DNA of 37,774 nucleotides from Clostridia bacterium. Lineage in GTDB: Bacteria > Bacillota > Clostridia > Christensenellales > Borkfalkiaceae. The stretch lies in the NCBI GenBank assembly GCA_017453885.1, contig JAFTDZ010000274.1, positions 1 through 37,774 on the forward strand, written 5' to 3'. The notes beneath the pieces were generated by a model, which did not search any database, was not told the origin of the DNA, and saw only the letters and a program-made list of their open reading frames with translations. The translations under genes and the position numbers were made by a program. Position 1 is the first letter of the stretch, and every line of letters starts with the position of its first letter. Positions 5,543 through 34,044 of the stretch are shown one piece after another.

Positions 5543-5571
5543 TTGATATTTGCGGGAAAATGTGTTACAAT
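5543..5571 (+). promoter_or_regulatory. SigA-type promoter for the hybrid kinase gene
   Basis: TTGATA (5543-5548), a 17-nt spacer, then TACAAT (5566-5571), preceded by a TGt extended -10 element. It lies about 40 nt upstream of the ATG at 5613. Confidence 0.5.
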
Positions 5572-5612
5572 TAATAAAGCAATTCAAAAACTTCCCTGAT
5601 CGGAGAAAAAGA

Positions 5613-16342: not shown

Positions 16343-16386
16343 TTAAAAAAATCAATAAGCGGCTTGAAGCCGTAAAGGAGGAAATT

Positions 16387-19300
16387 ATGAAAAAAAGAAA
16401 CTTACTTACACTTCTTTCCGTGATTCTCGCTTTATCTCTGGCGATAGGATTTTCCACGATGTACGTATCGGCGGAAGGAGAAACAACGGTCGATTACGCG
16501 CTTGACGGCGCGAAGTGGCAGAGATCGACTAATGCGGCGTTCGACGCCGACGGTATGCGCGCGACTGCCGCGTCCTACGCGTGGGTGACGAACGAGGTAG
16601 GCGGAAATTCCACCGTAAAAGTAACTTCCGTCGCGAACATAGCGGACAGCACCTGGGGATATTCCTGGGTAATGGTCAAGTCCGACGGCACGCAGACGGC
16701 ATGGGATCCCGGGCAGGCAACTTCTACCGGTAACTTCATCGCCGTGGGCATAGGTCGGTCGGCGGGCGCGGTTTACGTTTACGAATGCGCAGACGGCGAA
16801 GTCACTGTGGATAAAGCCTGGCGTGATTTCAATAACGCGTTCGTATGGTACGAGGACAGGGGAACCACCGTTTACGAGATCACTTCGACGGATACCGATA
16901 CGGGCGTTAAACTCGATATAACCATAACAGGTAAAGAGAACGCCCAAGCCGGCGGCAGCGCCGTGTGCAGTTGGACGTATAACTCCGCAAACAAACAACT
17001 TTGGGGAAATCAGAACATTATAATCGGTCACACCGGCAGCGGAACTTTCGACGGAACTCAATATTATAAATACAACGTTGAAGTTACCGACAGGGCTTCC
17101 GCCTACGTTTACGATCCTTATACCCGTTACGATAACGACGCGGAAAAGTGGGGAACTTTATCCAACGTGACCGTTACCGATAGCGGAATGTATCAGACGG
17201 CAAATTCTTCCTCTGCGATAACTACGCCGTTCGGCGGCAACGCAACTATAAAGTTGGACGTGGACTTCGTGGAAGCGGCAGGCGGCTGGGGCGGCCTTAT
17301 GGTTATGGTGAAAGGCTCCGCGGAAGATTACGCGGCGACCGCGTGGGGTTGGGGATCGCCCGATCGCCCGGTGGTAAATTCGGCGCAAGGCAGTTGGATC
17401 GCCGTGTTTATCGGCAACGGCAAATGCGGCGTTATAACCTGCGATAACGGTACGGTCACCGAAAAGACGGACGCCGAAGCGTTTACCGGAATAAACGGAA
17501 ATTCCTTCTGGTACGTTCATAAACAGAAAAACTCTTTCGTCATCACTACCGAAGATTATGCCGACGGAGCGAAGATAAATATAGCCTTTACCCCTTCCGG
17601 TTACGCGGCAAACACTGGTGACACATATTTTTATACGGCGAATATAGAAAATAAGGCGCTTTGGGGCGAACAAAGCCTCGCCGTTCTCACGACCACGGGC
17701 GGCGGAACGTATAACGCCGAAACCAACGCTTACGGCGTTAAGATAGCCGCCGAAGATTCCGGTTACGAGTATGTAGTTGACGACGGCAGCGTCCGTTACG
17801 ATAACGACGCGGAAAAATGGGAAACTTTATCCAACGTGACCGTTACCGAGGACGGAATGTATCAGACTAACGCCGTCAACGGAAATTCTTCCGCGGTATC
17901 CGTCGCTTTCGGCGCAAACGCCACCGTTAAACTTACCGTTGACTACGTAAATGCGAACGGCGGTTACGGCGGACTTATCGTTATGGTAAAAGGCACCGCG
18001 GCGGATTACGCCGGCACGGTGTGGAAATGGGACAGTGCCACCGCGAGCGCAACTTCGGCGCAAGGCAGTTGGGTAGCCGTATATATCTATAACGGAGCCG
18101 CGGGCGTATATATCTGCAAGAACGGCGTTGTTACCGATATTTCCAATGCGTTTGCGGGAATAAACGGGTATTCCTTCTGGTACGTTCACAAACAGACGAA
18201 TACTTTCGTAATTACTACCGAAGATACCGCGACCGGCGCGAACGTTACTATATCGTTCACACCGTCCGGCCATGAAAGCAACACGGGGGCGACTTTCTCC
18301 TACACGGCGTCCGTTGAGGATAAGATGATATGGGGCGAGCAGAATCTCTCCGTGGTAAGCCTTTTCGGCGGCGGAACTTACGGTGCGGATACCAACGCTT
18401 ACAGCGTAAAAGTCAAGGCGGAAGCGTCCGAATACAATAAAGACATGGCGAAGGCTTACGAAGTTTCTGCGCTTATAAGCGCGATCTCCTACGAGGAAAT
18501 AACCGCCGCCAATTACACCGCGGTGAGGAACGCGACCGTAGCCGCGAGAACCGCTTACGACGCACTGACGCAGGCGCAGAAAAACCTTATAAACGAAGCG
18601 GAATACGCAGTTCTCACAAAGGCGGAAAGCGACCTTGAAAATGTGGACGCGTTGGTACTTGCGCAGTACGCGATAAGCATTCTGCCCGAAGGCGCGTTTA
18701 CCGTTGAAAATTACGAGGAAAATAAAGAACTCGTCCTCGACGCTTACGAAAAATACTCCGCACTCACCGACGAGCAGAAAGCGGAAATTTCAGATGACGA
18801 TACGCAGAAACTTCTTTCGCTGAAGGCTGCGCTCGACGAGTTTACCGTAAATTACGAAAAAGCGGCGGAAGTTGACGGAATGATAGCGACGCTTCCCGAA
18901 ACGATAACCGTTTACGGTGAGAATATGCGCGCGATAACCGCGGCGAAAGCGGCATACGACGCCCTTACCGACTATCAGAAAACACTCGTCGCGTCGTCGG
19001 CAAAACTCACCGCGGCGCTCAAAGCCCTCTCGGCTTATGAATACGCGCTTTACGGCAACGATTACAACTTTACCGCAAGCGAGGAGAATTTCGCCCACGT
19101 CGGCACCGAAGGCAGAATGGAATATTCCGAAAACGGCGTTACCGTAAACATAGGCGATAACGGGCAGAGTTTCGTTCTCGGCAGAAAACTCGGTAACGGC
19201 GAAACCGTTCAGTTCGTGATAGATTCCCGCCTTACCAATTCCGGTTGGGGCAACTTCTACTTCGTATTCAAGCACGACGAACCCGTAACGTGCCACAGCA

Positions 19301-20472
19301 AAGGCGCTTGGGCGCAGAGCGGTAACTACGCCGTTTTCCTTATCGGTACCGACGGCTTCAAAGTAGTCGAATGCGTAAACGGCGTTCTCCCCATGGGCGA
19401 AGATCCGAACGGAAATCCCATCGCTCAATGGTCAACGATTCTGGACGATCCTTCCACCCTCGAGGGCGCGAATAATTACGACGTGTGGTATGTGTGGAAG
19501 CAGGTGACCGTAGTTACGATAACCACCGTAGATAAGATAGACGAGGAAGACGGATTTATAGGTTGGGAAGCCACCATAACCTTGACAGGCGGAAATTCCG
19601 GCGCAACGATAACGCGGAAGTATTCTTCCACCAACACGGCGGTACAAGGCGCGGGTTACGTAGGAGTGGAATTCTTTACCGGCGCTAAGATAAACGAGGG
19701 AAGCGGCGGATTCAATCTGAGAAGCGTTACCGTAAAGGGCGTTGAAACTTACGACGCCAAGGCGGAAAAAGCCAAAGCAGTTTCCGAAAAGATAGCCTCT
19801 CTTCCCGAAGATATCACCGCCGAAAACGTTGAGAGCGTAAAGGCGATCATCGCGGAGATAAAAGAGAGTTACGCCGCTCTCGACGACGAATATAAGCAGA
19901 CCGTGGAAAACTACGGTAAAGTTGCCGAAACCGAAGCCGCCGTGGCGGTTTACGAATCCGGCGTTAAAGTAGCCGCGGTAACGGCTGAAATAGCGGGGCT
20001 CGGAGAAGCGGGAAATACAAGGGCTTCCTATTCCGAAGCGAGGGCTTCGTATCTCTCCGTGAACGCCGCTTACGAAGCGCTTACCGACGCCGAAAAGGCT
20101 GCCGTAACGAACGCCGATAAACTCGCCGCGTTCAGGGCGGCGCTCGAGGCGCTCAAGGCGGATATAGATGCCGCCGACGGAACGGACGCGCTCATCACCG
20201 CGCTTATAACCGACGTTACCGCCGAAAACATCAACGACGCGAAAGCCGCTTACGAAGCCGCATATAACGCCTACGCGGCGCTTACCGACGCGCAGAAGGC
20301 TCTTCTCACCGAGGACGCCGCCGTTATCGAAACCGTTAAAGCCGCTATAGACGCGATCGAAACGCCCGAAAAGAAAGGTTGCTTCGGCGGGATCGACGCG
20401 GGGTACGGCATCATCTCGGCGTTTGCGGCGCTCGCTCTCGCGGCGGTCGCGAAGAGGAGATTCGCAAGATAG
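16387..20472 (+). CDS. 1361-aa secreted modular surface protein: signal peptide, four copies of an unassigned ~220-aa beta-rich module, two Ala-rich helical repeat regions and a KKGC/TM/basic C-terminal tail
   Basis: Strong RBS AAAGGAGGAAATT-ATG. The signal peptide is MKKRNLLTLLSVILALSLAIGFSTMYVSA/EG. Modules span roughly aa 30-243, 244-466, 467-690 and 905-1130. The helical repeats carry A-Y-x-A-L-T-D-x-Q-K six times. The tail is KKGCFGGIDAGYGIISAFAALALAAVAKRRFAR. Confidence 0.85.
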   Translation: MKKRNLLTLLSVILALSLAIGFSTMYVSAEGETTVDYALDGAKWQRSTNAAFDADGMRATAASYAWVTNEVGGNSTVKVTSVANIADSTWGYSWVMVKSDGTQTAWDPGQATSTGNFIAVGIGRSAGAVYVYECADGEVTVDKAWRDFNNAFVWYEDRGTTVYEITSTDTDTGVKLDITITGKENAQAGGSAVCSWTYNSANKQLWGNQNIIIGHTGSGTFDGTQYYKYNVEVTDRASAYVYDPYTRYDNDAEKWGTLSNVTVTDSGMYQTANSSSAITTPFGGNATIKLDVDFVEAAGGWGGLMVMVKGSAEDYAATAWGWGSPDRPVVNSAQGSWIAVFIGNGKCGVITCDNGTVTEKTDAEAFTGINGNSFWYVHKQKNSFVITTEDYADGAKINIAFTPSGYAANTGDTYFYTANIENKALWGEQSLAVLTTTGGGTYNAETNAYGVKIAAEDSGYEYVVDDGSVRYDNDAEKWETLSNVTVTEDGMYQTNAVNGNSSAVSVAFGANATVKLTVDYVNANGGYGGLIVMVKGTAADYAGTVWKWDSATASATSAQGSWVAVYIYNGAAGVYICKNGVVTDISNAFAGINGYSFWYVHKQTNTFVITTEDTATGANVTISFTPSGHESNTGATFSYTASVEDKMIWGEQNLSVVSLFGGGTYGADTNAYSVKVKAEASEYNKDMAKAYEVSALISAISYEEITAANYTAVRNATVAARTAYDALTQAQKNLINEAEYAVLTKAESDLENVDALVLAQYAISILPEGAFTVENYEENKELVLDAYEKYSALTDEQKAEISDDDTQKLLSLKAALDEFTVNYEKAAEVDGMIATLPETITVYGENMRAITAAKAAYDALTDYQKTLVASSAKLTAALKALSAYEYALYGNDYNFTASEENFAHVGTEGRMEYSENGVTVNIGDNGQSFVLGRKLGNGETVQFVIDSRLTNSGWGNFYFVFKHDEPVTCHSKGAWAQSGNYAVFLIGTDGFKVVECVNGVLPMGEDPNGNPIAQWSTILDDPSTLEGANNYDVWYVWKQVTVVTITTVDKIDEEDGFIGWEATITLTGGNSGATITRKYSSTNTAVQGAGYVGVEFFTGAKINEGSGGFNLRSVTVKGVETYDAKAEKAKAVSEKIASLPEDITAENVESVKAIIAEIKESYAALDDEYKQTVENYGKVAETEAAVAVYESGVKVAAVTAEIAGLGEAGNTRASYSEARASYLSVNAAYEALTDAEKAAVTNADKLAAFRAALEALKADIDAADGTDALITALITDVTAENINDAKAAYEAAYNAYAALTDAQKALLTEDAAVIETVKAAIDAIETPEKKGCFGGIDAGYGIISAFAALALAAVAKRRFAR
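17116..18453 (+). repeat. Tandem in-frame duplication, 2 x 669 nt (223 aa), inside the surface-protein gene
   Basis: 17125-17196 matches 17794-17865 with about 5 mismatches in 72 nt. 17502-17558 matches 18171-18227 with about 7 mismatches in 57 nt. The offset is exactly 669 nt in both cases. The rest of the units are similar at protein level. Confidence 0.85.
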
Positions 20473-20486
20473 TTCAACGTTGCTTT

Positions 20487-20526
20487 GCGGTTGCGGCTTG
20501 ACCGCCGCAACCGCTTAAAAGTTTTT
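20487..20526 (+). terminator. Rho-independent-like hairpin after the surface-protein gene
   Basis: A perfect 11-bp stem, GCGGTTGCGGC (20487-20497) with GCCGCAACCGC (20504-20514), has a 6-nt loop and is followed by TTAAAAGTTTTT. The next gene starts only 24 nt later, so it probably terminates only partially. Confidence 0.65.
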
Positions 20527-20549
20527 ATAAAAGCGCAAAGAGGTTCAAC

Positions 20550-22415
20550 TTGAAAAGTTTTTACGCAAAAATCAGAACGGCAATACTTATCGCCGCCGCG
20601 GCGATGCTTTGCTTTATATTGTGTTCCTGTTCCGCCGCGGAGGTAAACCTCGCCCGCGACGGCAGCGGGACCGCCACCGTGAGAATAGCCAAAACTTACA
20701 TCGACGACGGCGTTACCGTTTCCGTTACGGAAAAAGACGTAAAGGACAGGATAGACGGCTTGATAAAAGCGGTGGAATACAGTTCCGGCATGGAGAACAG
20801 GTTAAAACTGAGATCTATCAAAGATGCCGGCGAATTTTACTCTGTAAATCTTTCTTTCATGCGCGCTCAATATATCTGTACATACGGCGGTGACGCGGGC
20901 TATTACTCTTATAAAAAGTCCTCGGAATTCGTAAAGGAGGCGGACAGCGTAGCCACGCTTACGGAATATTGGTATTACGGTTCTTATAAACCGTATCTTA
21001 AAAGTTACGAAAACGCCAAATACAACTTCGCCAACTACAGGCGGCCGAGCGCAAACGCCGCTCTCAAACCAAAGCGCGCCGGCGCGGAACTTACCGAGGC
21101 TGAAGTTGCCGGACTGTTTTCGGAAAGCGGAGAACTTGCGGAAAATGCCCGCGGGCGCATATTCACTTTTTACATAGCGGATATGGAATGGCTTGAAAGC
21201 ATAACTTTCAACTTCAAAGGGAAAGTAGAGGTTTACGCCGGTACCGGAACGGTTACCGCGGGCGAACGCTCGCTGACCGTCACGCCCGTAACCGAAAAGG
21301 CGGACATAACGGGTATAGACGCCGACGGGGAAGTGATTCACGAAACTCGCGACGTAAAATGTTTTGTCGGCTACGTATATTTCACGCTCGAAGCGAATAA
21401 AGCCGCCGTCGGCATATTCGCCGTTCTCGGCGTCGCTCTCGCCGGCTTCGTTATTTACGGAATAATTACCGGCGTTTTCAAAAGGTTTTTCAAAGGGAAA
21501 TTCTTCAGGTCGCTCGTCAGGAACTACGACCTGTATCTTATGGTCATACCGGGCGTAGTTCTGCTCTTTTTGTTCGCGTATCTGCCGATGGGCGGCGTAA
21601 CGCTCGCCTTCAAAAACTACCGCACTACGGACGGGATATGGAGAAGCGAGTGGACGTCTATGTTCGGGCTCAAAAATTTTTACGATCTGTTCGCGGAGAG
21701 GAACAGTTTCCCGCTGCTGATAAAAAACACTTTCGTGCTGGCGTTCTGGAAGTTTATTTTCGGTTTTCTTATCGCCATAGCGCTCGCGGTGCTGTTCAGT
21801 TATCTTAAAAACGGGCTGTTCAAAAAGACCGTTCAGACGATCTCTTACTTCCCGTATTTTATATCGTGGGTGGTAATTTCCACCATATCGTATATGTTTC
21901 TCGCCACCGACGGCGGAATACTCAACAAGGCGATAACCGCGTTCGGCGGAACGGCGATAAACTGGTACGCCTCGCCGAAATACTGGCCGTTCATTCTCAC
22001 CTTTACGGCTATGTGGCGAACGGCGGGGTATTCTACGATAATTTACCTCGCGGCGATAGTGAATATAAATCCGTCCCTTTACGAAGCGGCGACGATAGAC
22101 GGGGCGGGCAGGTTTCAGCAACTTCTGCACATCACCCTGCCGGGGCTTATCCCCGTTCTCGGGATACAGATAGTGTTCAGCCTCGGCAATCTCGTAAGGG
22201 ACGATTTCGACCAGATATACACCATGGTAAGGGGAAGCGCTCTGTTAAGGGACACCACCGATACCATAGGTAAAATAGTTTACGAAAATATAGGAACACC
22301 CTCGGCTTACAGCAGTACCGCCGCTATGGGGCTTTTGCAGGGATTAGTGGGGCTTATACTCGTGGTGACGAGCAACGCCATTTTAAAGCGCCACGACATT
22401 CAGGGCGCGTATTGA
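20550..22415 (+). CDS. ABC sugar-transporter permease (LplB/CUT1 type) fused to a ~310-aa N-terminal lipobox, extracytoplasmic domain and extra TM
   Basis: The TTG start lies 6 nt after the AAAGAGG RBS. The lipobox-like sequence is FILCSC (Cys27). A domain with no recognisable family spans about aa 28-284, and a TM spans aa 285-309. The canonical LplB-like core follows (NYDLYLMVIPGVVLLFLFAYLPMGGVTLAFKNY ... EAATIDGAGRFQQLLHITLP, the EAA loop). Confidence 0.85.
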   Translation: MKSFYAKIRTAILIAAAAMLCFILCSCSAAEVNLARDGSGTATVRIAKTYIDDGVTVSVTEKDVKDRIDGLIKAVEYSSGMENRLKLRSIKDAGEFYSVNLSFMRAQYICTYGGDAGYYSYKKSSEFVKEADSVATLTEYWYYGSYKPYLKSYENAKYNFANYRRPSANAALKPKRAGAELTEAEVAGLFSESGELAENARGRIFTFYIADMEWLESITFNFKGKVEVYAGTGTVTAGERSLTVTPVTEKADITGIDADGEVIHETRDVKCFVGYVYFTLEANKAAVGIFAVLGVALAGFVIYGIITGVFKRFFKGKFFRSLVRNYDLYLMVIPGVVLLFLFAYLPMGGVTLAFKNYRTTDGIWRSEWTSMFGLKNFYDLFAERNSFPLLIKNTFVLAFWKFIFGFLIAIALAVLFSYLKNGLFKKTVQTISYFPYFISWVVISTISYMFLATDGGILNKAITAFGGTAINWYASPKYWPFILTFTAMWRTAGYSTIIYLAAIVNINPSLYEAATIDGAGRFQQLLHITLPGLIPVLGIQIVFSLGNLVRDDFDQIYTMVRGSALLRDTTDTIGKIVYENIGTPSAYSSTAAMGLLQGLVGLILVVTSNAILKRHDIQGAY

Positions 22416-22426
22416 GAGGTGAAGGT

Positions 22427-23302
22427 ATGATAATACGTTCCAGAGGAGAAAAGATATTCGACGTGATAAACGTGTTTATCATGATCGTTTTCGCGGCGCT
22501 TTTCATAATACCCGCGCTTCTTATGATATGCTCGTCCTTCACCGCCACGCGGGAACTCACGCTTTACGGTTACAGCCTTATAATACGCAAATTTTCGCTC
22601 GAATACTACAAGAGCATTTTCGGAATGGAGAGCAATCAATTTGTGCTATCGCTCGGCAACTCCGTATTCGTATCGGGGCTGACCACCTTCTTTATGGTGC
22701 TTACGACGAGTTTCTTCGCCTACGCCATAACCCGCAAACAGATGAAATTCAAAAAGATTCTTTCGTTCTATCTTATTATCCCTATGCTGTTCAGCGGGGG
22801 CACCATACCTTATTACCTTATCGTGAACGGTTTGGGGCTGATGAATTCGCTTTGGGCTATAATACTGCCGGGTTCGGTCAGCGCCTGGTATATACTGCTC
22901 GTAAAAAATTTCTTTTCTTCGCTGTCCGAAAGTCTTAACGAGGCGGCGGAGATAGAGGGCGCGTCTAATTTTCAGGTGTTGTTTCACATAACGCTACCGC
23001 TCGGCTTTCCGATAATAGCCACCATAATATTATATACAGCCGTCGGCACCTGGAACGACTGGTTTCAGGCTTCCATATTTCTCGACAGCAATCACTATAA
23101 CCTCTGGCCGCTGCAGGCTTTCGTAAGGCGGCTGCAGGACAGCGACGAATTCTTAAAATCGTATTTCGGCAACACTTCGCTCAATTTCAACGGAATAAGA
23201 ACTGCCGCCGTTATACTGTCGCTGATACCGATAATTATGGTGTATCCGTTCGTTCAGCGTTTCTTCATAGAGGGAACGATGGTCGGTTCGGTAAAAGAAT
23301 AA
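22427..23302 (+). CDS. ABC sugar-transporter permease (LplC/CUT1 type)
   Basis: The ATG at 22427 follows a GAGGTGAAGG RBS. The EAA-loop region is EAAEIEGASNFQVLFHITLPLGFP. There are six predicted hydrophobic segments. Confidence 0.9.
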   Translation: MIIRSRGEKIFDVINVFIMIVFAALFIIPALLMICSSFTATRELTLYGYSLIIRKFSLEYYKSIFGMESNQFVLSLGNSVFVSGLTTFFMVLTTSFFAYAITRKQMKFKKILSFYLIIPMLFSGGTIPYYLIVNGLGLMNSLWAIILPGSVSAWYILLVKNFFSSLSESLNEAAEIEGASNFQVLFHITLPLGFPIIATIILYTAVGTWNDWFQASIFLDSNHYNLWPLQAFVRRLQDSDEFLKSYFGNTSLNFNGIRTAAVILSLIPIIMVYPFVQRFFIEGTMVGSVKE

Positions 23303-23324
23303 ACTCTTAAAAGGAGGAGATATT

Positions 23325-24995: not shown

Positions 24996-25050
24996 ACAAG
25001 CAACGGTCAAATAAAAAAACGCGCGTAAAGCGCGGCAGGAGGAAAAATAT

Positions 25051-26355
25051 ATGAAAAAATTAAGGATGATAACGGCAGTTTTCGCCGCAGCGGCGATCTT
25101 GGCGGCAATGCCGCTTTTCGCGGCGTCGGCAGAGGGCTATTCTTATGAAATAGCCGAGGAAAACGACCTCGCTTCCTGGCGGTACGACTGGAACACCGTG
25201 GAGATAGGCTCGGGCAAAACCGGTTTTGAAAGCGGAAACCTGAAAATGGAGAACATAAATCAGGGCACCGCGAACTACGCACTTTACAAAACAAACAAAT
25301 TCAACGAATTTCAACTCGATTTTTACGCAAATCTGTATCTGCCTTCCCCGAGCGACACGGGCAAGGACGGAACAGATTACGCCAACCTTTACTTGACTTT
25401 TTATATCGATTTCGACGACGCTTCTCTCGTTGAGAACGCGGCTATGGCGGCTTGCCCGTGGACTATGAACAAGGGCTGGTTCTCCGTGTGCTTCGAGAGA
25501 ATACAGGGTTACAGCAAAATTCAGTTCCTCGTCAACGAAACTTTCGACGGTCACGGAGAAACCCGTTACTTCCTCGATAAGGACTGCGTAACCGCTTCCA
25601 CCGACTGGTGCGACAACAAATATCATTGGTTCAGAATAACCGCGCAAAGTACCCGCACGGCGGATTTCGCCACGTCCGGCTGTACTTACACCGTTTATAT
25701 CGACGGGGAAAAGGAAGCCGAAACTTTCCTTTGCGACAGGATATATTCCAACACCAACCTCGCGTGGGAAGAAGTCAGGTTCAGCGAGAAGAAGGGATAC
25801 TTCGGCTTCTGGGCTTCAAGCGGTTACGGAATGGGTATGGGCACAGCCGAAACCGGCGCTATGGCGGATATAAAAAATCTTTCCGTAACATCTTTCGACG
25901 GCGGGAACGACACCCCGTATCCGAGGTCGGCTATGCCCGTTGCGAATATTTCCGCCAACAATTCTTTCTCTCCAGAAGCGAGTTACGAAACGGGCGAAGA
26001 TATAGAGATAAGGCTTGCCGATCTGTTCGAGTACGACGGCGAGGATAAATTAACATATACCGCTTCTTACAACGGAGAGCCGATAGGCGAGATAAAGAAC
26101 AACTATTTCGTATGGAACCCGACGGAAGAGGGCGTTTACGATATTGACTTCACGGCGGTCACCGCAGACGATCTCTCCGCAGCGAACAAAGTCCGCCTGC
26201 GCGTGGTAAAAGGCGCCGCGCCCGTTCAGCCTGCGGAAAGTTCCGATAAAGTAAGCGAAAAGACTTCTAAAAAAGGTTGCGGTTCGTCTGTTTCCGCAGG
26301 TTTCAGCGGCATTGTTTTGCTCGCCGTTTTCGCCCTGCGCAAAAAGAGAGCGTGA
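25051..26355 (+). CDS. Secreted surface protein: ConA/LamG-like beta-sandwich (pattern-level guess), Ig-like domain and KKGC/TM/basic C-terminal tail
   Basis: RBS GGAGGA. The signal peptide ends AASA/EG. There is no catalytic motif I recognise. The end-of-domain pattern KKGYFGFWASSG...MADIKNLSVTSFD is reminiscent of lectin-like jelly rolls. The tail is KKGCGSSVSAGFSGIVLLAVFALRKKRA. Confidence 0.7.
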   Translation: MKKLRMITAVFAAAAILAAMPLFAASAEGYSYEIAEENDLASWRYDWNTVEIGSGKTGFESGNLKMENINQGTANYALYKTNKFNEFQLDFYANLYLPSPSDTGKDGTDYANLYLTFYIDFDDASLVENAAMAACPWTMNKGWFSVCFERIQGYSKIQFLVNETFDGHGETRYFLDKDCVTASTDWCDNKYHWFRITAQSTRTADFATSGCTYTVYIDGEKEAETFLCDRIYSNTNLAWEEVRFSEKKGYFGFWASSGYGMGMGTAETGAMADIKNLSVTSFDGGNDTPYPRSAMPVANISANNSFSPEASYETGEDIEIRLADLFEYDGEDKLTYTASYNGEPIGEIKNNYFVWNPTEEGVYDIDFTAVTADDLSAANKVRLRVVKGAAPVQPAESSDKVSEKTSKKGCGSSVSAGFSGIVLLAVFALRKKRA

Positions 26356-26367
26356 GCGGAAAAGACC

Positions 26368-27969
26368 ATGAAAAAGATATTTTCTATTATTATAACGGCG
26401 ATCATGGCTATTTCTCTTTCCGCCTGCGGAACAAAACCGGATTCTTCCGCCGGCGTTTCCGCGGGTAAAGATATTATTTCGATAAGTGATTCCGCCATAG
26501 CGGCGGGGTACGCGCGGTACGACGTGACTTCCGCCCTTAAAAGAAAGACGGAGGGCTTCGGCGCGCAGTTCGATACGTGCGTACTTGACAGGAACAACAA
26601 ACATCTTACCGACTGGGAAGTTTATAAAAAGGCGGTAAAAACTTCTAACCTGCAGGCGGTAAGGATAAGATTTTATCCCGAAATGTACGAGAGGATGAAC
26701 GATAATTCCGATCCGGATACGTTCGATTTCGAAAGCCCGAACGTGGATTTCAACTCCATAGAGATGGGCTATCTGTATAAACTTCTCGACCTTTTCGAGG
26801 AAAACGGCGTGCGCGTGGATCTTTCCTGGTACGGTTGCCGTTCCACTTTCGCTTCCGAGGACGGAAAAATAACGGGCAGTTGGCTCGGCGGCAAGTACGG
26901 CGAAAACGGCGTGAACAATTGGATGGTACAGCCCTCGCTCACCGAAAAACCCGCGGAAGAGTTTGCCGAATCCGTTGCGGCTTGCCTCTATTACCTCATA
27001 GAGGTGAAAAAATATACCTGCCTTTACGAATACAGCCTTTTTCCCGAGCCGGAAGGCGTGATCAAAGATATGGATCTCTACGGGAAGATAGCCGCGCTCA
27101 CGAAGGAAAAACTCGCCGGATACGGCATTGCGGATAAAATTTTGTTTTCCGGCCCCGCCGACTACGGCAACAATGCCGAAAACCTTAAAAACAAATATTT
27201 AAGCGGTAAATATCCTTACGACAAGGTAGATTCTTCCGTTTACTGTTTCCACGGTACCACGTCCGTCAGCGGTGTGGAGAGGGCGCCTTCGCCCAATGCG
27301 GCAATGTACGAATTTGCCAAAAATCACGTTGACGTATGCGAGGAGTTCGGCGCGTCCTGGGGCGTTGCCGAATGCGGAACGAGCAACTTTATTACCGCGG
27401 TCACCAACGCCGATACCGAACTTTACGACAGGGCTATAACGATGGCGCGCTTCCTTATAAATTTATGTAACGCCGGTTGCACGAATATCAAATATTTCGT
27501 TTTCGGCGACTGCAGTTACGACGGGATACTCAACGAGGAAGGGCTGTTCAGGTTCGCAAGATCCGCGTACTCGGATTCCGCGATAGATTATCAGGCGAAG
27601 CCCGTGTGGTACGCTTGGTCGCTTCTTATGCGTTACACCGATATAGGCAGCGAGGTTTATCCTATAACCGTAAATTACGACGACGGCGACGACGAGGTTT
27701 GCATAACGGCTTTTCGCTTGCCCGACGGCAGTTGGACTTACGCCGCCGCTAACATAGGCGGCGGGCAGAAGAAGATAGCGCTCGTAAACGGCAGGGCGGA
27801 CAGACCTTCCTCAATGAAGATATTCCGCCTCACCGCGGCGAGTACTCCTTCGGGAGCCGACGCCGAACTGAAAATTATAGATAAGTACGGCGATGCGGAC
27901 GCGTCCGGCGGCGTGGCGTATTTCACTATACCCGCTAACGGCATAGCGGTGCTTTCGGATAAAGAATAA
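26368..27969 (+). CDS. Lipoprotein, putative clan GH-A-like (beta/alpha)8 glycosidase with C-terminal beta-sandwich; family not assignable
   Basis: The lipobox is LSAC. GFGAQFD is like the GH30-type N-terminal motif. The candidate acid/base Glu is in LFPEPEG and the candidate nucleophile Glu is in WGVAECG. It is a paralog of the next gene. Confidence 0.65.
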   Translation: MKKIFSIIITAIMAISLSACGTKPDSSAGVSAGKDIISISDSAIAAGYARYDVTSALKRKTEGFGAQFDTCVLDRNNKHLTDWEVYKKAVKTSNLQAVRIRFYPEMYERMNDNSDPDTFDFESPNVDFNSIEMGYLYKLLDLFEENGVRVDLSWYGCRSTFASEDGKITGSWLGGKYGENGVNNWMVQPSLTEKPAEEFAESVAACLYYLIEVKKYTCLYEYSLFPEPEGVIKDMDLYGKIAALTKEKLAGYGIADKILFSGPADYGNNAENLKNKYLSGKYPYDKVDSSVYCFHGTTSVSGVERAPSPNAAMYEFAKNHVDVCEEFGASWGVAECGTSNFITAVTNADTELYDRAITMARFLINLCNAGCTNIKYFVFGDCSYDGILNEEGLFRFARSAYSDSAIDYQAKPVWYAWSLLMRYTDIGSEVYPITVNYDDGDDEVCITAFRLPDGSWTYAAANIGGGQKKIALVNGRADRPSSMKIFRLTAASTPSGADAELKIIDKYGDADASGGVAYFTIPANGIAVLSDKE

Positions 27970-27983
27970 AGGAGATAACGTTC

Positions 27984-29543
27984 GTGAATATGAAAAAATT
28001 TATTTGTTTTATTCTCGCGGCGACGGTTTTGTTTCTCGTTTCGTGCAAGAACGGAGATTCTTCCGTTCCCGATAAAGGCGCGATAACGGGGGAGATCGCC
28101 GTAAACGCGGGTTATGTCCGTTACGACGTGGGCAAAAAACTTCCCGATCCGATAGTCGGTTTCGGGGCGCAGATGGATACGGATATATTTATGCCTTACA
28201 ACAAGATGACCGAAGAGGACGAAGCCCTTTGGGAAGAGCGTATAAAGGATATGAATATCCGCTATACAAGGATAAAGATGTTCCCCGAATTTTTCGAACG
28301 CGCCAACGACAATGACGATCCCGACGTTTTCGATTGGGATTCCGAGGGCGTGGATTTCGATTGCGCGGAGATGCAGGCTTTATATAAAATTCTCGACCTG
28401 TGCGAAAAATACGATATAAAGGCGGATCTGAGTTGGTACGATTGCTGGAGCAATTTCAAGTCTTACGACGGAACGGTAAACGGCAGTTGGCTTGCGGTCG
28501 ATCAATCCGGCTGGGCGAAGGCTCCTAAAGATTTTTACGAGTACGCGGAAAACATTTCCGCCTGCCTGCAATACCTTATCAATGTAAAAAAATACACTTG
28601 TCTTTGGGGCTTCAGCAATATAGCCGAAGGGTTCATCGACGAAAACAACGTTAAAAGTTGGCCCGCCTACGTGGAGAGTTGCCGCATCATCGACGAAAAA
28701 TTAAAAAAAGACGGAATAAGGGATAAAATAAGGTTTATAAGTTCCACCGAGCGCGGCATAATTAAATATTTCAAAGAGGAATACGGCGAGATAAAGGACT
28801 ATTTTGACGTTGTAGGGCTCGGCAATTACAGTTGGGACAATAACGATCCGAACGAGGCTATCTATTCTTACTATGCGGATCTTCGTGAGGCGGTCGATGA
28901 ATTCGGCGTGCGCGACATAGTGATCTCCGAATTCTGCGAGGGCAAGCACTTTACGGACGCGGTCAATAAAACGGACATCGACGACTATACAGCCGGTCTG
29001 TATATAGCGCGCTTTTGCATAAACGCCGCTTCCGAAGGCGTTACCGGTTTCGACCACTATATCCTCGGCGACGTGTGGTTTACCGACTCCTACGTTCACA
29101 CGATGGGGCTTTGGATGTACCGCGACAGCAACGTGAAAAACCCCGAATATATTTCCTGGGCGGCTCACCCCGAATATTATTTTTACGGGCTTATCTGCAA
29201 ATATAACGAGCCGGGCAGTTACGTTTACAGGCTCGACCAGAAGTTGAATTCCGTATACGACGACAGAGATCCCGATATATGCTGCGTGGCTTTCAACCTG
29301 CCTGACGGCAGTTGGTCTTACTATCTGGCGAACAGCGGCTCTTCGGGCAAAAAGATCGCTATAGTAAACGCCCTCGCAAACCGCCCCGCCAGAATGAATT
29401 GCTACAAGATAACCGAAGCGGGCATTCCGGAGGACAGGGCTTGCGTTCTGCCTTCGGCTTATACGCAGATAGACGCGAGCGACGGCGTGGCTTACGTTAC
29501 CGTTCCGGCGAACGGTTTCGTGGTGGTATCCGACAGAAAATAA
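27984..29543 (+). CDS. Lipoprotein, tandem paralog of 26368-27969 (putative clan GH-A-like glycosidase)
   Basis: The GTG start lies 9 nt after the AAGGAG RBS. The lipobox is LVSC. Blocks shared with the upstream gene are GFGAQ.DT, DDPD.FD, DLSWY, NGSWL, CL.YLI.VKKYTCL, LPDGSW.Y and GVAY.T.PANG..V.SD. Confidence 0.65.
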   Translation: MNMKKFICFILAATVLFLVSCKNGDSSVPDKGAITGEIAVNAGYVRYDVGKKLPDPIVGFGAQMDTDIFMPYNKMTEEDEALWEERIKDMNIRYTRIKMFPEFFERANDNDDPDVFDWDSEGVDFDCAEMQALYKILDLCEKYDIKADLSWYDCWSNFKSYDGTVNGSWLAVDQSGWAKAPKDFYEYAENISACLQYLINVKKYTCLWGFSNIAEGFIDENNVKSWPAYVESCRIIDEKLKKDGIRDKIRFISSTERGIIKYFKEEYGEIKDYFDVVGLGNYSWDNNDPNEAIYSYYADLREAVDEFGVRDIVISEFCEGKHFTDAVNKTDIDDYTAGLYIARFCINAASEGVTGFDHYILGDVWFTDSYVHTMGLWMYRDSNVKNPEYISWAAHPEYYFYGLICKYNEPGSYVYRLDQKLNSVYDDRDPDICCVAFNLPDGSWSYYLANSGSSGKKIAIVNALANRPARMNCYKITEAGIPEDRACVLPSAYTQIDASDGVAYVTVPANGFVVVSDRK

Positions 29544-29559
29544 TTGCGGGAGTGTTACT

Positions 29560-31521
29560 ATGAAAAATTTACGCAACGCGCTCGTTTGCGTTATCGTTTT
29601 TGCATTTATTTCAGCCGCGGGTATCCGCGCGGAAACAACGTTTGCCGACAGCGAAGAAGTCACCGCGAGTATAGAGAGGTTGAGTCCGTTCTTTATGGTT
29701 GCGCCGTCGATAGTGGCGGACGTGGAAACCGAAGAACAACTCAACGCCTACCGCGCGAGCAAAATGGAAGTTTGCCCCGCAACGCTGATACTCAGGATAG
29801 ATTCGTCGCTCAACGTGACCGATAAGGACGGAAACGCCGTAACGATGCGCGATACGCTCGGCAATACTTATACGGGATTTCACGCTATACGCGCAAACCT
29901 GAAAAAGCGGCATATGCTTGTAGCCGTGTATCTGCGCGGCGAAGAGGAGGAAGAAGCGCTTTCCTCGTATCTTGCGGAAAATCAGGAAATTTACGATCTA
30001 ACCGTAATTTCGGCCGACGCCTCGCTCGTCAAAAAAGCGAGGGAAAACAACCCATATATCCGCGGCGCCGTGGACTATTCCGCTACTGCGGATAAAGCGG
30101 ACGTTCGGGCGATAACGGCGGAGAGCAATTTATCTAAGGCGAACTGCGTTATTCTCTCGCAGGCGCAGGCGGATAAGGAAACTTGCTATCGCATTCAGTC
30201 GATGTTCAAGTCCGTTTGGGTAAGGGCGGAAGGAACGGAAGATTACGATTATCTCAAGGCGGTATCGACCGGCGCTTACGGCGTGATAACCAGATCCGCC
30301 GACGTCGGCGCTCTCTACGACCTTAACGACCGTTTCGACGGTAACGGAAGGAGTTTTTCGCTCCCGCATTCCTTTTACAACATAGGGCACAGGGGCTGTA
30401 ATTCCGCGCCGGAAAATACGCTTAAAGCCTGTCGCCTTGCCTATGAAGGCGGCGCCACGCACATAGAAATAGACGTTAAAGTTTCAAGCGACGGAAAGTT
30501 GTTCGTCTTTCACGATAACGATCTTTCCGCAAATACTTCCGCGTCGGGGAATCCGGAAAACTACACGCTCGAACAACTTAAAAACATCGACGTAATCGGG
30601 TTTGACAAAGCCGACGCGGGCAACGCAAAAAGTTTCCCCGAGGAGCAGGCGGAAAAGATAGCCTCTCTCGACGATATTTTCGACTATTTCAAGGATAAGG
30701 ACGATATAATAATAATCTGCGAGATAAAAACGGTAAATCCGAAAGTAGTTCAACTTCTCGGCGAAAAGATAGAAGAATACGGAATGTACGGCAAAGTGGT
30801 TTCCATAGCGTTCGCATTGGATATGCTCGGGCGCATGGAGGAAAACAAACTTACCGCCCGTATCCCCACGGCGTATCTCGGCACAGTGGCGGACGCGTCG
30901 CTTGCGGACAGGTTAAAGGATCTTTCCTCAAACAACACCGCGAGCAACGTGCCGCTCGGCACAAACCTTTACCGCATGGGGCTGAAAGATCGCGGCTTCG
31001 TTTACTACGCTTGGACGTACAATACCGAAAAGGCGGTTCAGAACGCGATCAAATCGGGCGCGGTGGGCATAACGAGCAACGTCACCCCGTCTATCGGCAA
31101 GTATCCGAGGAAGATAACGCCTGCGGAAAGTTATACGCTCGATGAAACCGCGGATATTTCTTCCGCGGTATTTCCCGCAAAGGTGACCTGTTTCGACAGG
31201 ACGGAGAGCATAGAGGAATGTTCGGTATTCGCTTACCGCACAAACGGCGACAGCGCGGAAGTTATCCTTCAATACACCGATCCGTACGGAATTTACACTC
31301 TCTACAGCGACGCCGTTACCGTTGAATTTTTACGGAACGACGAAGAATCTTCTTCCGCGGCGGCTTCTTCTGAAAGCGCCGAGGAAAGCGGTTTGAACGG
31401 AAATTCCGCGCCCGGCGAAAGCGCGGGTAAAAAAGGCTGTAAAGGCGGGTTCGGCGCCGAAGGGTTATCCGTCGTTTTTGCCGCCGCGATCATCGCAATA
31501 AATAAAAGACGTGAAAAATAA
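29560..31521 (+). CDS. Secreted glycerophosphodiester phosphodiesterase (GDPD) domain protein with KKGC/TM/basic C-terminal tail
   Basis: The signal peptide ends GIRA/ET. The GDPD core is FYNIGHRGCNSAPENTLKACRLAYEGGATHIEIDVKVSSDGKLFVFHDNDL (HRG...PENT...E.D...HD). An N-terminal region of about 270 aa is unassigned, and an Ig-like region follows the GDPD domain. The tail is KKGCKGGFGAEGLSVVFAAAIIAINKRREK. Confidence 0.85.
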   Translation: MKNLRNALVCVIVFAFISAAGIRAETTFADSEEVTASIERLSPFFMVAPSIVADVETEEQLNAYRASKMEVCPATLILRIDSSLNVTDKDGNAVTMRDTLGNTYTGFHAIRANLKKRHMLVAVYLRGEEEEEALSSYLAENQEIYDLTVISADASLVKKARENNPYIRGAVDYSATADKADVRAITAESNLSKANCVILSQAQADKETCYRIQSMFKSVWVRAEGTEDYDYLKAVSTGAYGVITRSADVGALYDLNDRFDGNGRSFSLPHSFYNIGHRGCNSAPENTLKACRLAYEGGATHIEIDVKVSSDGKLFVFHDNDLSANTSASGNPENYTLEQLKNIDVIGFDKADAGNAKSFPEEQAEKIASLDDIFDYFKDKDDIIIICEIKTVNPKVVQLLGEKIEEYGMYGKVVSIAFALDMLGRMEENKLTARIPTAYLGTVADASLADRLKDLSSNNTASNVPLGTNLYRMGLKDRGFVYYAWTYNTEKAVQNAIKSGAVGITSNVTPSIGKYPRKITPAESYTLDETADISSAVFPAKVTCFDRTESIEECSVFAYRTNGDSAEVILQYTDPYGIYTLYSDAVTVEFLRNDEESSSAAASSESAEESGLNGNSAPGESAGKKGCKGGFGAEGLSVVFAAAIIAINKRREK

Positions 31522-31522
31522 T

Positions 31523-32731
31523 ATGAAAGACATCGACTATCTCAAAGAGAAATATTACCCGATATTCAAGGAAGAATTGTTTGACAGTTGCATTCCATTC
31601 TGGCTCGAACACGGCAAGGACGAAAAAAACGGCGGTCTTTATACCTGCCTCGACAGGACGGGCGAGATCTTTTCCGAGGACAAAAGCGTGTGGATGCAAG
31701 GCCGTTGCGGTTATACCTTCTCGCACGTTTCAAACGTTTTCGGGCGGAACGAAGAATACCTTTCCTTTGCGAAGAGTTGCATAGATTTCGAGGATAAACA
31801 TTGCTTCGATACGGACGGCAGAATGTTCTTCAAGGTAACGGCGGACGGCAAGCCTTTAAGAAAGCGCAGATATTGGTTCAGCGAATCCTTTTACGTTCTC
31901 GCGCAGGCGGAATATTATATGGCTACGGGTGAGGAGAGATCGCTTGTTTCCGCCCGTCGCGTTTACGATATGATAAACGGAATATTTATCGATCCGTCGT
32001 CCGATCCGTTTAAGATCTACCCCAAAACCTGTCCGGAAACGCGAAGGTTCAAGGGGCTTTCGGAAGCGATGATACTTTTCAATACCTCTTACGTAATGCG
32101 CAAGGCGGACGCGGAGAGAAGGGAATATTACGCCGCTACCGCAGACCTTTGCCTTAAAGAGATAAAAAATCATTATTTTCCGGAAATGTCCGTCCTTTTG
32201 GAAAACGTTACCGAGGATAACCGATACGACGGCAGCACTTCAGACGGCAGAATAATAAACCCCGGGCACGATATGGAGTGCGCGTTCTTCCTGTTGCAGG
32301 AAGCGTTATATCGCAAGGACGAGGCGCTTGTGACCTTTGCGGAAACGATATTTCTCGACGCATGGCGCAGGGGGCGCGATGAAAAATACGGCGGCATTTT
32401 ATACTTTGTAGACGCGGAAAACAAACCCGTGGAGGCTTACGAACACGATATGAAGTTGTGGTGGGTACACAACGAATGTATGAACGCCGCTCTCCTTCTG
32501 CTGTATGCCACGGGAAAAAGCGTTTACGCTGAAATATTCGACGAGGTCGCCTCGTATTCTCTCTCGCATTTCAGCGACCGCGAGTACGGCGAATGGTTCG
32601 GCTATCTCCGCAGGGACGGTATTCCCACCGAACCGCCGTGCAAGGGCTGTTCGTTCAAGGGGCCTTTCCACGTTCTCCGCAACCTTGCCGCCATGCTCAA
32701 CATCTTCGACGGCAAGCCCGGACTTATCTGA
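31523..32731 (+). CDS. N-acylglucosamine 2-epimerase (AGE/RenBP) superfamily protein; could be an aldose, cellobiose or mannobiose 2-epimerase type
   Basis: IPFWLEHGKDEKNGGLYTCLDRTGEIFSEDKSVWMQGRCGYTFSHV, PGHDMECAFFLL and KLWWVHNECMNA fit the AGE (alpha/alpha)6 family. The start is uncertain: ATG at 31523 or GTG at 31511, and neither has a good RBS. Confidence 0.75.
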   Translation: MKDIDYLKEKYYPIFKEELFDSCIPFWLEHGKDEKNGGLYTCLDRTGEIFSEDKSVWMQGRCGYTFSHVSNVFGRNEEYLSFAKSCIDFEDKHCFDTDGRMFFKVTADGKPLRKRRYWFSESFYVLAQAEYYMATGEERSLVSARRVYDMINGIFIDPSSDPFKIYPKTCPETRRFKGLSEAMILFNTSYVMRKADAERREYYAATADLCLKEIKNHYFPEMSVLLENVTEDNRYDGSTSDGRIINPGHDMECAFFLLQEALYRKDEALVTFAETIFLDAWRRGRDEKYGGILYFVDAENKPVEAYEHDMKLWWVHNECMNAALLLLYATGKSVYAEIFDEVASYSLSHFSDREYGEWFGYLRRDGIPTEPPCKGCSFKGPFHVLRNLAAMLNIFDGKPGLI

Positions 32732-32748
32732 CCTTGCTTACCAAACGA

Positions 32749-32777
32749 AAAAAGGCTTGATTGTTTCAAGCCTTTTT
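32749..32777. terminator. Bidirectional rho-independent terminator between the convergent AGE and AraC genes
   Basis: AAAAAGGCTTGA (32749-32760) pairs with TCAAGCCTTTTT (32766-32777) around a 5-nt loop. It is flanked by an A-tract and a T-tract. Confidence 0.8.
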
Positions 32778-32779
32778 AT

Positions 32780-33679: not shown

Positions 33680-33994
33680 TTTCCATTCCCTTTAACAATA
33701 AGTTAAAAATAGTTAAATCATATAACTTCTCTTTTATTATAATCTATTTATATCACAAAATCCATAACAATATACAACTTTTTATTTAACAAAACAAAAC
33801 TTTGATAATAATTTTGTTAAACGAAAAGCGGATAGCCGTTAGCGTAACGGCGCTTTAATCGAAAGCGATGTCGCGTATCTCGCCCGCACCGATAAAGGCG
33901 TAAGCGCCGTTCGTATTTTACAATCGTCTGACGCCTCTTATGAGGATATTATAGCAAAAAAAACAATAAACGTCCGCTTTTGATGCGTTTTTTC

Positions 33995-34023
33995 TTGAAA
34001 AACAGTCGGCTTTCGGTTATAAT
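33995..34023 (+). promoter_or_regulatory. SigA-type promoter for the kinase/araD operon
   Basis: TTGAAA (33995-34000), a 17-nt spacer, then TATAAT (34018-34023). The RBS AAAGGAG at 34031-34037 precedes the ATG at 34045. Confidence 0.6.
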
Positions 34024-34044
34024 AATATAAAAGGAGAAACGATT

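Follow-up and report, generated by a model that had tools for sequence, protein, structure and literature searches.

What does a co-directional run of nine genes, most of them for exported or membrane proteins, do in an uncultured gut bacterium? The question is raised by a block at positions 16387-32731 of the window, the whole stretch of 37,774 nucleotides that we analyzed (Clostridia bacterium, assembly GCA_017453885.1, contig JAFTDZ010000274.1). An earlier note, made from the letters alone, had proposed a Gram-positive polysaccharide utilization locus (gpPUL). We consider it likely that the block, whose genes we call G1 to G9, is a polysaccharide-utilization cassette of an uncultured gut Firmicute. 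The central components are two lipoproteins, G6 and G7, which on the strength of a structural model very probably are retaining glycosidases of clan GH-A, in a glycoside hydrolase (GH) family that is absent from Pfam, NCBIfam and the PDB.

All nine open reading frames (ORFs) within the block lie on the + strand according to the ORF list of the window (Table 1), and the junctions between them measure, in order, 77, -4, 22, 55, 12, 14, 16 and -11 nt. Seven of their products are exported or membrane proteins; the other two are a second permease and a cytoplasmic enzyme. The tiny gaps described in the earlier note were thus confirmed. Of its 'nine to ten genes' nine were found; the seeming extra surface protein is an ectodomain fused in frame to G2. 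The same-strand block stood as well, yet its start at G1 did not, because the co-directional run begins upstream with the GH78 gene. The GH78 ORF and the gene after it share 4 nt, and 44 nt separate the end of the latter from G1.

Export was judged by the N-terminal Kyte-Doolittle 12-mer maximum (at least 2.5) together with a check for a lipobox, which is a cruder test than SignalP. Maxima of 2.5-3.2 were seen in G1, G2 and G4 to G8, with cleavable-type signal peptides in G1, G5 and G8 and lipoboxes in G2 (LCSC), G4 (LFSC), G6 (LSAC) and G7 (LVSC). In contrast, GH2, GH28, DUF2961/GH172, GH43, DUF4434, GH78, the SGNH+GH63-like protein and G9 were all at or below 1.07 and had no signal peptide. 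The division between exported, uncharacterized proteins and signal-less classical carbohydrate-active enzymes, noted earlier, therefore held.

G6 and G7 are paralogues with 36% identity (E 3e-97). Families were scanned with Pfam and NCBIfam at E ≤ 0.01 and complemented by PDB sequence searches. Neither protein had a Pfam or NCBIfam match at this threshold; in the PDB, G6 found no match and G7 only chance-level ones (E ≥ 0.35). A word-indexed search of 5.8 billion proteins returned only 58 close clusters, all of them unnamed and without Pfam domains. A cluster-member look-up of eight homologues gave no name in any source, and G6 itself had no exact entry in a contig index. When 1.84 billion representatives were searched exhaustively with a profile, 983 clusters were reached at E ≤ 1e-3, 148 of them at E ≤ 1e-30; hence the narrow G6/G7 family sits within a larger superfamily. 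A literature search for recently founded clan GH-A families found nothing related. The absence of a recognizable family, as first noticed, was borne out at the level of these sequence searches.

At the level of the fold the picture was different. Structure prediction and fold searching had been proposed for the exported proteins, and the AlphaFold2 model of G6, calculated from a 40-sequence alignment (predicted local distance difference test, pLDDT, 92.7; predicted template-modeling score, pTM, 0.90), showed a (beta/alpha)8 barrel of eight alternating strand/helix units followed by a C-terminal beta-sandwich. Foldseek retrieved GH30 xylanases and a GH30 xylobiohydrolase, GH79 beta-glucuronidases, heparanase, SrfJ and GH51 from the PDB, with E of 1e-17 to 1e-14, identities of 10-15% and a probability of 1.00 to GH30, GH79 and GH51. 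For GH30 and GH79 structures the target-normalized TM score was 0.63-0.76 at E 1e-17 to 1e-15. Model and fold search agree with the notion that the two surface lipoproteins are TIM-barrel hydrolases, with G6 predicted to be a GH30/GH79-like barrel.

In the modeled barrel of G6 the predicted acid/base E227 is found where strand 4 ends and the predicted nucleophile E335 where strand 7 ends; these are the catalytic positions of clan GH-A. Both were invariant in the 40 family sequences, which reach down to 34% identity, and so were R99, E105, E108, D112, N113 and Y292 at the rim of the barrel. Alignment with 23 wider relatives by hhalign (E 3e-72) paired E227 with the Glu of an N-E-P motif and E335 with the nucleophile Glu of an E-G motif. 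The profile of these relatives matched GH79 (9e-9), GH30 (4e-8) and GH5_4 (3e-6) in the PDB; the sequence link of G6/G7 to GH79 is only transitive, from the wider relatives to the leech hyaluronoglucuronidase 7eyo (E 9e-9). When 58 wider relatives were scanned with Pfam, 13 carried CBM_4_9, four dockerins, two SLH domains and two tails of the type IX secretion system (T9SS), along with weak matches to Glyco_hydro_30C in 11 and to GH5 in six, and matches to GH39 in two. Because of the CBM_4_9, dockerin, SLH and T9SS modules we regard the wider relatives as secreted carbohydrate-active enzymes.

G6 and G7 differ from the clan in the acid/base motif, which in all 40 sequences reads either S-x-F-P-E-P-[EDN]-G (G6 clade; 27040-27057 in the window) or S-x-I-A-E (G7 clade; 28617-28634; one sequence has E-E), whereas the wider relatives retain N-E-P. 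The Asn of this motif, which is typical of clan GH-A though not strictly defining, is thus absent from both proteins. In clan GH-A the Asn before the acid/base Glu usually contacts the 2-hydroxyl of the substrate. To judge from the sequences, its loss hints at an unusual sugar in the -1 subsite, with a different substituent or configuration at C2, and is no proof of it; it could mean altered chemistry or, less likely, lost activity. If activity were lost, G6 and G7 would be non-catalytic glycan-binding lipoproteins, degenerate glycosidase folds that act as binders or scaffolds for the transporter while depolymerization takes place elsewhere. Such a role would fit the loss of the canonical Asn in both clades (P-E-P, A-E) and the position of two paralogues directly beside a solute-binding protein (SBP) and a permease with an extra ectodomain. 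Yet inactive homologues usually lose their catalytic-position residues, and here the Glu pair and the rim residues are invariant throughout the family; moreover, N-E-P is retained in the wider relatives, which carry fused carbohydrate-binding modules and dockerins as true enzymes do. We regard purely binding G6 and G7 as very unlikely, and from model and conserved Glu pair we infer that both are hydrolases.

Membership in the two nearest families was considered and rejected. GH30 was dismissed because no Pfam Glyco_hydro_30 or Glyco_hydro_30C match appeared at E ≤ 0.01, the family profile reached the PDB glucosylceramidase only at E 0.14 and structural identity was 11-13%. For GH79 there was neither a Pfam match of G6/G7 nor a match to the family at sequence level. 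With GH30 (AcXbh30A 7n6o, XynC 3kl0, glucosylceramidase) and GH79 (Acidobacterium beta-glucuronidase 3vny, Burkholderia heparanase 5bwi) the G6 model shares the barrel with appended beta-sandwich, the Glu acid/base after strand 4 and the Glu nucleophile on strand 7. Unlike them, G6 stands at no more than 10-15% identity, N-E-P is replaced by P-E-P or A-E, and the G6/G7 family has a long conserved loop motif, PExYERxNDNxDP, for which no counterpart could be assigned. Judged by the model, then, G6 and G7 are not orphans at the level of the fold, where they fall into clan GH-A with GH30, GH79 and GH5 as nearest families, and they probably form a new family of this clan, novelty being assessed against Pfam, NCBIfam and the PDB.

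The import system is encoded directly upstream. The permease domain of G2 matched Pfam PF00528 (BPD_transp_1; 44.8 bits, residues ~320-621) as well as UgpA/MalF-type NCBIfam models. It is preceded by a lipoprotein-like ectodomain of ~285 amino acids (residues 1-284, 20550-21401), which is fused to it in frame. The fusion was kept in all 14 aligned orthologues, and the lipobox Cys of the ectodomain was invariant among them. A 'RDGSG' motif was observed in the ectodomain ahead of the membrane domain. Docking of the SBP or channelling of substrate is a role that one may ask about for the ectodomain. G3 matched PF00528 and, at 77 bits, under the equivalog cut-off, the NCBIfam MalG model.

The third component, G4, has the lipobox ALFSC. 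It aligned with SBP_bac_1 over 9-305 of the 307 model positions at E 0.006 and 17 bits (cut-off 26). As a single sequence it found only chance-level matches in the PDB (E 0.17 or weaker), and the profile of 17 orthologues hit the Listeria SBP Lin1841 (5ysb) at E 4e-7 within residues 61-218 only. The CUT1 importer described in the earlier note was recovered as two permeases and a 556-residue lipoprotein that probably is an SBP, its match to the family being weak. No ATP-binding cassette (ABC) ATPase is encoded in the locus. Many CUT1 systems of Firmicutes use a shared ATPase encoded elsewhere, and CUT1 importers with large lipoprotein SBPs, for instance LplABC of Bacillus subtilis, likewise combine two MalF/MalG-UgpA/UgpE-type permeases and a lipoprotein SBP with no ATPase in the locus. 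In contrast to these, the SBP of the cassette is very divergent, to the point that Pfam recognizes it at E 0.006 and the PDB match exists at profile level only, and the first permease bears the ectodomain with a lipobox of its own.

Three further proteins, G1, G5 and G8, are secreted. G5 had no Pfam or NCBIfam match at E ≤ 0.01 and only chance-level matches in the PDB (E 0.17 or weaker). Its AlphaFold2 model (pLDDT 73) showed a beta-sandwich like that of concanavalin and L-type lectins together with an immunoglobulin (Ig)-like module, and with this model Foldseek retrieved the lectin region of SraP (E 4e-10), the mannose lectin YwfG, Sas6 and an archaeal legume-lectin domain. G5 thus came out as a predicted lectin-like sandwich, and glycan binding is the best reading of its role. 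SraP (4m00), Lactococcus YwfG (7yl5) and Ruminococcus bromii Sas6 (7uww) resemble the prediction in having a lectin-like sandwich and an Ig-like module on a surface stalk; in contrast to them G5 has a model of moderate confidence and no Pfam domain, and it shares just 8-17% identity with them.

G1 contains four repeats of one module of ~220 residues (16489-17121, 17122-17790, 17791-18456 and 19054-19761) between a signal peptide and a C-terminal transmembrane segment. Its only Pfam match was a sub-threshold one to LTXXQ. Helical units of the type 'A-Y-x-A-L-T-x-x-Q-K' lie between and after the beta-rich modules (18552-18585, 18951-18984, 20067-20100 and 20247-20301); they probably form a stalk. 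Because hhalign gave a probability of just 0.7% for a relation of the G1 repeat module to the G5 family, the two proteins share no detectable module. A search of a large database with a single G1 repeat was uninformative: it had no matches at all and so missed even G1.

The surface phosphodiesterase claimed earlier corresponds to G8, which has a signal peptide and a C-terminal transmembrane segment and matched the Pfam family of glycerophosphodiester phosphodiesterases (GDPD, PF03009) with 84.1 bits at residues 277-507, well above the cut-off of 23.6. Extra N- and C-terminal regions flank this domain, and no NCBIfam equivalog cut-off was reached.

G1, G5 and G8 end in a common tail, in which the motif [K/x]-[K/G/S]-G-C-[K/G]-[G/S] is followed by ~20 hydrophobic residues and a cluster of Lys and Arg. 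Besides the three window proteins, 27 G1-, G5- and GDPD-like proteins of related loci (L001-L024; see below) carry it, and position +2 was G or S in 27/27 although the search pattern had not demanded so. In the G5 family G409-C410 is invariant. Neither LPxT[GAN] nor NPxTG was found in G1, G5 or G8, and anchoring by sortase was ruled out as LPXTG is missing. Searched alone against NCBIfam, the three tails gave no match even at E ≤ 10. Cys-containing C-terminal sorting signals of the MYXO-CTERM type were described by Haft in a paper that leaves Firmicutes unmentioned. The tails of G1, G5 and G8 are built like these signals, in that a short motif whose Cys is invariant precedes a hydrophobic segment with a basic cluster behind it, and differ from them in matching no NCBIfam model. 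No protease of the Rce1/CPBP type was seen in the loci; a genome-wide search was not made. By its sequence, the tail may be a new signal that could be named 'GC-CTERM'.

Whether these genes belong together was addressed by a scan of a genome collection, which yielded 27 loci, all of them from gut metagenome-assembled genomes (MAGs). Uncultured Clostridia, Christensenellaceae, Candidatus Scatosoma, Erysipelotrichaceae and 'Bacilli' are among these MAGs, and the sources include humans (Hadza, Nepali and fiber-intervention cohorts, which gave L002-L005 and L017) and roe deer. Components were counted per locus by tblastn and ORF clustering (Table 1). The order G2-G3-G4-G5-G6-G7 was found in about 20 of the 27 loci, in different species-level MAGs with 35-70% protein identity. 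The locus of the closest G6 relative (71% identity) comprises G1-like, G2, G3, SBP, G5, G6, G7, a third paralogue, N-acylglucosamine 2-epimerase (AGE), GH127-like and GH28 genes, and a near-identical copy of the window locus is present in an ENA assembly. The conserved unit consists of G2-G7 and the AraC gene, while G1, G8, G9 and the cytoplasmic glycosidases are accessories whose presence varies with the lineage.

The synteny bears on the view that the block is no functional unit at all and that the genes for surface proteins, for a sugar transporter and for the enzymes are independent of one another and merely share a strand. A promoter and terminator scan of 15500-34200 gave counts equal to those of shuffled sequences, with no operon boundary callable, so that the operon structure is deduced from spacing and synteny. 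Mere adjacency would also fit the variable presence of G1, G8 and G9 in relatives and the gaps of 77 and 55 nt, which could house internal promoters. Yet junctions of -11 to 77 nt, the conserved order of the core over such divergence and the recurrence of G1-like (~12 loci), AGE (10) and AraC genes (12) beside that same core make chance adjacency highly improbable in our view. We favor one cassette, whose genes would be co-transcribed and whose exported products would be displayed at the cell surface.

The AraC-family gene next to G9 is the probable regulator of the cassette. G9 itself matched Pfam GlcNAc_2-epim (GlcNAc, N-acetylglucosamine) with 155 bits against a cut-off of 23.4 and the NCBIfam AGE equivalog with 299.7 bits, under the cut-off of 600; with no signal peptide, it fits the cytoplasmic epimerase of the earlier note. 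In the PDB it was much closer to AGE (8bry, E 6e-87) than to cellobiose 2-epimerases (~1e-20). No literature was found on PDB 8BRY, 8BRZ and 8BS0. A mannan/cellobiose-2-epimerase pathway was rejected, because G9 is much closer to true AGEs and no GH130-type phosphorylase was noted in the window or among the recurrent neighbors.

A surface GDPD together with an epimerase closest to true GlcNAc 2-epimerases could also belong to maintenance and recycling of the envelope. G6 and G7 would then trim the cell's own secondary wall polysaccharide or a teichoic-acid-like polymer, G8 would cleave its glycerophosphate units, and the fragments would be re-imported with N-acetylmannosamine (ManNAc) or GlcNAc recycled by the epimerase. 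ManNAc-GlcNAc linkage units and glycerophosphate are part of the chemistry of Gram-positive wall polymers, every surface component is membrane-tethered near the wall, and GH78 could serve rhamnose-rich wall polysaccharides. On the other hand the conserved partners are a sugar regulator of the AraC type and plant-type cytoplasmic debranching enzymes (GH78, GH127-like, GH28, GH32, GH43) with araBD nearby, GDPD occurs in only three related loci and AGE in 10, wall-biosynthesis genes are not linked, and lectin-like capture proteins are typical of foraging systems. We consider a role in the envelope unlikely and favor foraging for a polysaccharide.

For a gpPUL the published minimum is one enzyme that degrades a polysaccharide, one carbohydrate transporter and one transcriptional regulator in the locus (PMC5320581). 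The cassette has the transporter, in the two MalF/MalG/UgpA/UgpE-type permeases with the SBP, and the regulator, in the AraC-family gene; as enzymes it offers the predicted surface glycosidases G6 and G7, along with GH78 and other cytoplasmic ones. The proposed gpPUL logic was thus supported, with the enzyme part depending on the model.

The cassette may work as follows. A glycan would be held at the surface by the lectin-like G5 and the multi-module G1, both kept at the membrane by the tail of Gly-Cys, transmembrane segment and basic cluster, and would be cut by the membrane-tethered lipoprotein glycosidases G6 and G7. In some lineages the surface GDPD protein G8 may remove or cleave a phosphodiester decoration. 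Oligosaccharides would be bound by G4 and imported via G2/G3, energized by an ATPase encoded elsewhere, and dismantled in the cytoplasm by exo-enzymes, namely the GH78 rhamnosidase and the SGNH esterase/GH63-like protein and, in relatives, GH127-like, GH28, DUF4434 and GH32 proteins. The AGE-type 2-epimerase G9 would then act on the products, and the AraC regulator would control the set. This direction of flux is one that we infer.

In the gpPULs of Roseburia and Eubacterium rectale (Sheridan et al. 2016, PMC5320581) genes for glycoside hydrolases are likewise grouped with those of an ABC carbohydrate transporter and a regulator. Extracellular cleavage, import of oligosaccharides and cytoplasmic exo-hydrolysis follow one another there, as we propose here. 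In contrast to them, the exported enzymes of the cassette are in no Pfam, NCBIfam or PDB family, lipoboxes and a Gly-Cys C-terminal tail are used in place of LPXTG, and one permease has a fused lipoprotein-like ectodomain. Sus-like loci of Bacteroides are similar in their working, with lipid-anchored surface hydrolases, non-catalytic binders, oligosaccharide import and internal exo-enzymes. Yet the cassette has no SusC/SusD pair, there is no outer membrane, import is of the ABC type, and the cassette is not a member of that family.

Several findings speak against a cassette of this kind, in addition to the lost Asn of G6/G7 and the missing promoter and terminator signal. No ORF of the window encodes a cognate ABC ATPase of the MsmK/MalK type for the CUT1 importer. 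The accessory genes differ between loci, with GDPD in only three of them, so the full set of nine genes is not the conserved unit. The confidence of the G5 model is moderate and its fold is common to GH16-type enzymes as well, so that G5 may be catalytic and 'binding protein' is an insecure label. The G1 modules have no assignable fold, with no NCBIfam match and only chance-level results in the PDB, and the G2 ectodomain has no Pfam relative, no match of its profile in the PDB and likewise no assignable fold.

As to the substrate, the chemistry of clan GH-A implies equatorial beta-D or alpha-L linkages. The recurrent neighbors GH78, GH127-like, GH28, GH43 and araBD point to pectic or arabinogalactan-type plant glycans that bear rhamnose and arabinose, and because G9 is near true GlcNAc 2-epimerases and a GDPD occasionally accompanies the cassette, microbial glycans with N-acetylhexosamine and phosphodiester stay in play. 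Our guess, made with low confidence and with somewhat less than even chances, is a beta-D- or alpha-L-linked plant glycan of the pectic or arabinogalactan type with rhamnose. A microbial cell-wall glycan with rhamnose, N-acetylhexosamine and phosphodiester is a rather improbable second guess, also of low confidence, and something else takes the remainder.

A more far-reaching combination of these elements appears doubtful to us: a new GH family in which P-E-P and A-E reflect an unusual -1 sugar, a glycan not yet known as a substrate of gut Firmicutes, an undescribed Clostridial Gly-Cys signal and a permease with an ectodomain, all at once. In that case C2 of the -1 sugar might be axial, N-acetylated or otherwise modified, which would fit the linked GlcNAc/ManNAc 2-epimerase, and the target would be, for example, a microbial wall polysaccharide with rhamnose, N-acetylhexosamine and phosphodiester or a complex pectic domain.

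Table 1. Features of the cassette and its surroundings, with positions in the window and the number of related loci (of 27) in which a counterpart was counted.
Feature	Position	Strand	Description	Related loci
G1	16387-20472	+	1361 amino acids; secreted surface protein, repeats and Gly-Cys tail	12 (G1-like, upstream of cassette)
G2	20550-22415	+	621 amino acids; ABC permease with N-terminal lipoprotein-like ectodomain	18 (with ectodomain)
G3	22412-23302	+	296 amino acids; second ABC permease (MalG/UgpE type)	15
G4	23325-24995	+	556 amino acids; lipoprotein SBP	19
G5	25051-26355	+	434 amino acids; secreted, predicted lectin-like sandwich and Ig-like module	20
G6	26368-27969	+	533 amino acids; lipoprotein, predicted clan GH-A glycoside hydrolase	
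G7	27984-29543	+	519 amino acids; lipoprotein, G6 paralogue	
G6/G7 family			usually G6-type then G7-type	25 (45 genes)
G8	29560-31521	+	653 amino acids; secreted GDPD-family protein	3 (after G7, in L007, L010 and L014 only)
G9	31511-32731	+	406 amino acids; cytoplasmic AGE-family enzyme	10 (after cassette)
AraC-family gene	32780-33679	-	Pfam HTH_18 and AraC_binding	12 (adjoining cassette, usually divergent from G2)
G6 E227, predicted acid/base	27046-27048	+	motif F-P-E-P-E-G, follows strand 219-224	
G6 E335, predicted nucleophile	27370-27372	+	motif A-E-C-G-T, in strand 331-336	
G7 E215, predicted acid/base	28626-28628	+	motif I-A-E-G-F	
G7 E316, predicted nucleophile	28929-28931	+	motif I-S-E-F-C-E-G	
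Gly-Cys tail of G1	20377-20472	+	Cys motif, transmembrane segment, basic cluster	
Gly-Cys tail of G5	26275-26355	+	Cys motif, transmembrane segment, basic cluster	
Gly-Cys tail of G8	31435-31521	+	Cys motif, transmembrane segment, basic cluster	
GH78 alpha-L-rhamnosidase	11166-13559	+	Bac_rhamnosid6H 216 bits, N-terminal and concanavalin-like domains, no signal peptide	5
SGNH+GH63-like fusion	13556-16342	+	928 amino acids; N-terminal region, Lipase_GDSL_2, MGH1-like_GH six-hairpin glycosidase domain	
GH63-like half				4
SGNH-containing half				3
DUF4434 protein	10026-10913	-	185 bits, cytoplasmic	5
GFO/IDH/MocA oxidoreductases				6
GH127-like				5
GH32				3-4

By Pfam the genes flanking the cassette are GH2, GH28, DUF2961, a hybrid histidine kinase, GH43, DUF4434, GH78, SGNH+MGH1/GH63-like, AraC, an FGGY kinase and AraD. 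GH78, the first gene of the co-directional run, is accessory to the cassette; it and the GH63-like enzyme belong to recognized GH families, are cytoplasmic and probably exo-acting. The SGNH half and the GH63/MGH1-like half form one ORF in the window, whereas in L006 (1359-2942 and 13206-14459) and L009 each half has a gene of its own and the cassette lies between the two; therefore a gene fusion or rearrangement has occurred. The DUF4434 gene recurs at L001, L011-L013 and L022, often directly before the AGE gene, and a literature search on DUF4434 found nothing relevant. GFO/IDH/MocA oxidoreductases (e.g. L006, 14456-16393) and, in three loci, a xylose-isomerase-like TIM-barrel protein lie near the cassette, which hints at an oxidative step of the 3-keto-sugar type in the processing of imported sugar.

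Beyond the AraC gene, the FGGY kinase and AraD (L-ribulose-5-phosphate 4-epimerase, 355 bits) at 34045-36284 look like an L-arabinose catabolic pair beside the locus. The best sigma-70-like site of the scanned region, with 11/12 matches, lies ahead of this pair at 33995-34023. At the other end of the window, the GH2 ORF (946-2985) has TTG as its start codon, and its match to the N-terminal sugar-binding domain of GH2 is confined to the final part of that domain. Another ORF, at 8-694 and in a different frame, enters from the edge of the window. The GH2 gene may be truncated or carry a frameshift, or the upstream ORF may be a gene of its own. In the hybrid histidine kinase (5550-8708, 1052 amino acids) an N-terminal sensor region flanked by membrane segments is combined with two receiver domains. 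Its gene is placed between the GH2-GH28-GH172 genes and the GH43 gene, and the kinase may serve the wider carbohydrate region as a second regulator. Scans of the window for Rfam families and tRNAs gave no matches.

Taken together the type of locus is otherwise ordinary, and what is new are the exported enzymes as a probable new clan GH-A family and the unusual features of anchoring and fusion. In our view the cassette is no conceptual surprise; its value is that of a solid lead to new enzymes from uncultured gut Clostridia. The guts of humans and animals harbor such Clostridia (Christensenellaceae-like bacteria, Candidatus Scatosoma and their relatives) in abundance, and what they feed on is largely unknown; the cassette, being compact and conserved, gives a way to get at one of their substrates. 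If G6, G7, the SBP and G5 were characterized, CAZy would gain a family and the annotation of many metagenomic 'hypothetical lipoproteins' would improve, and a new niche built on a dietary or microbial glycan could come to light. From the Gly-Cys tail and the fusion of ectodomain and permease one may learn how the capture of glycans at the surface is organized in Gram-positive bacteria without LPXTG anchoring.

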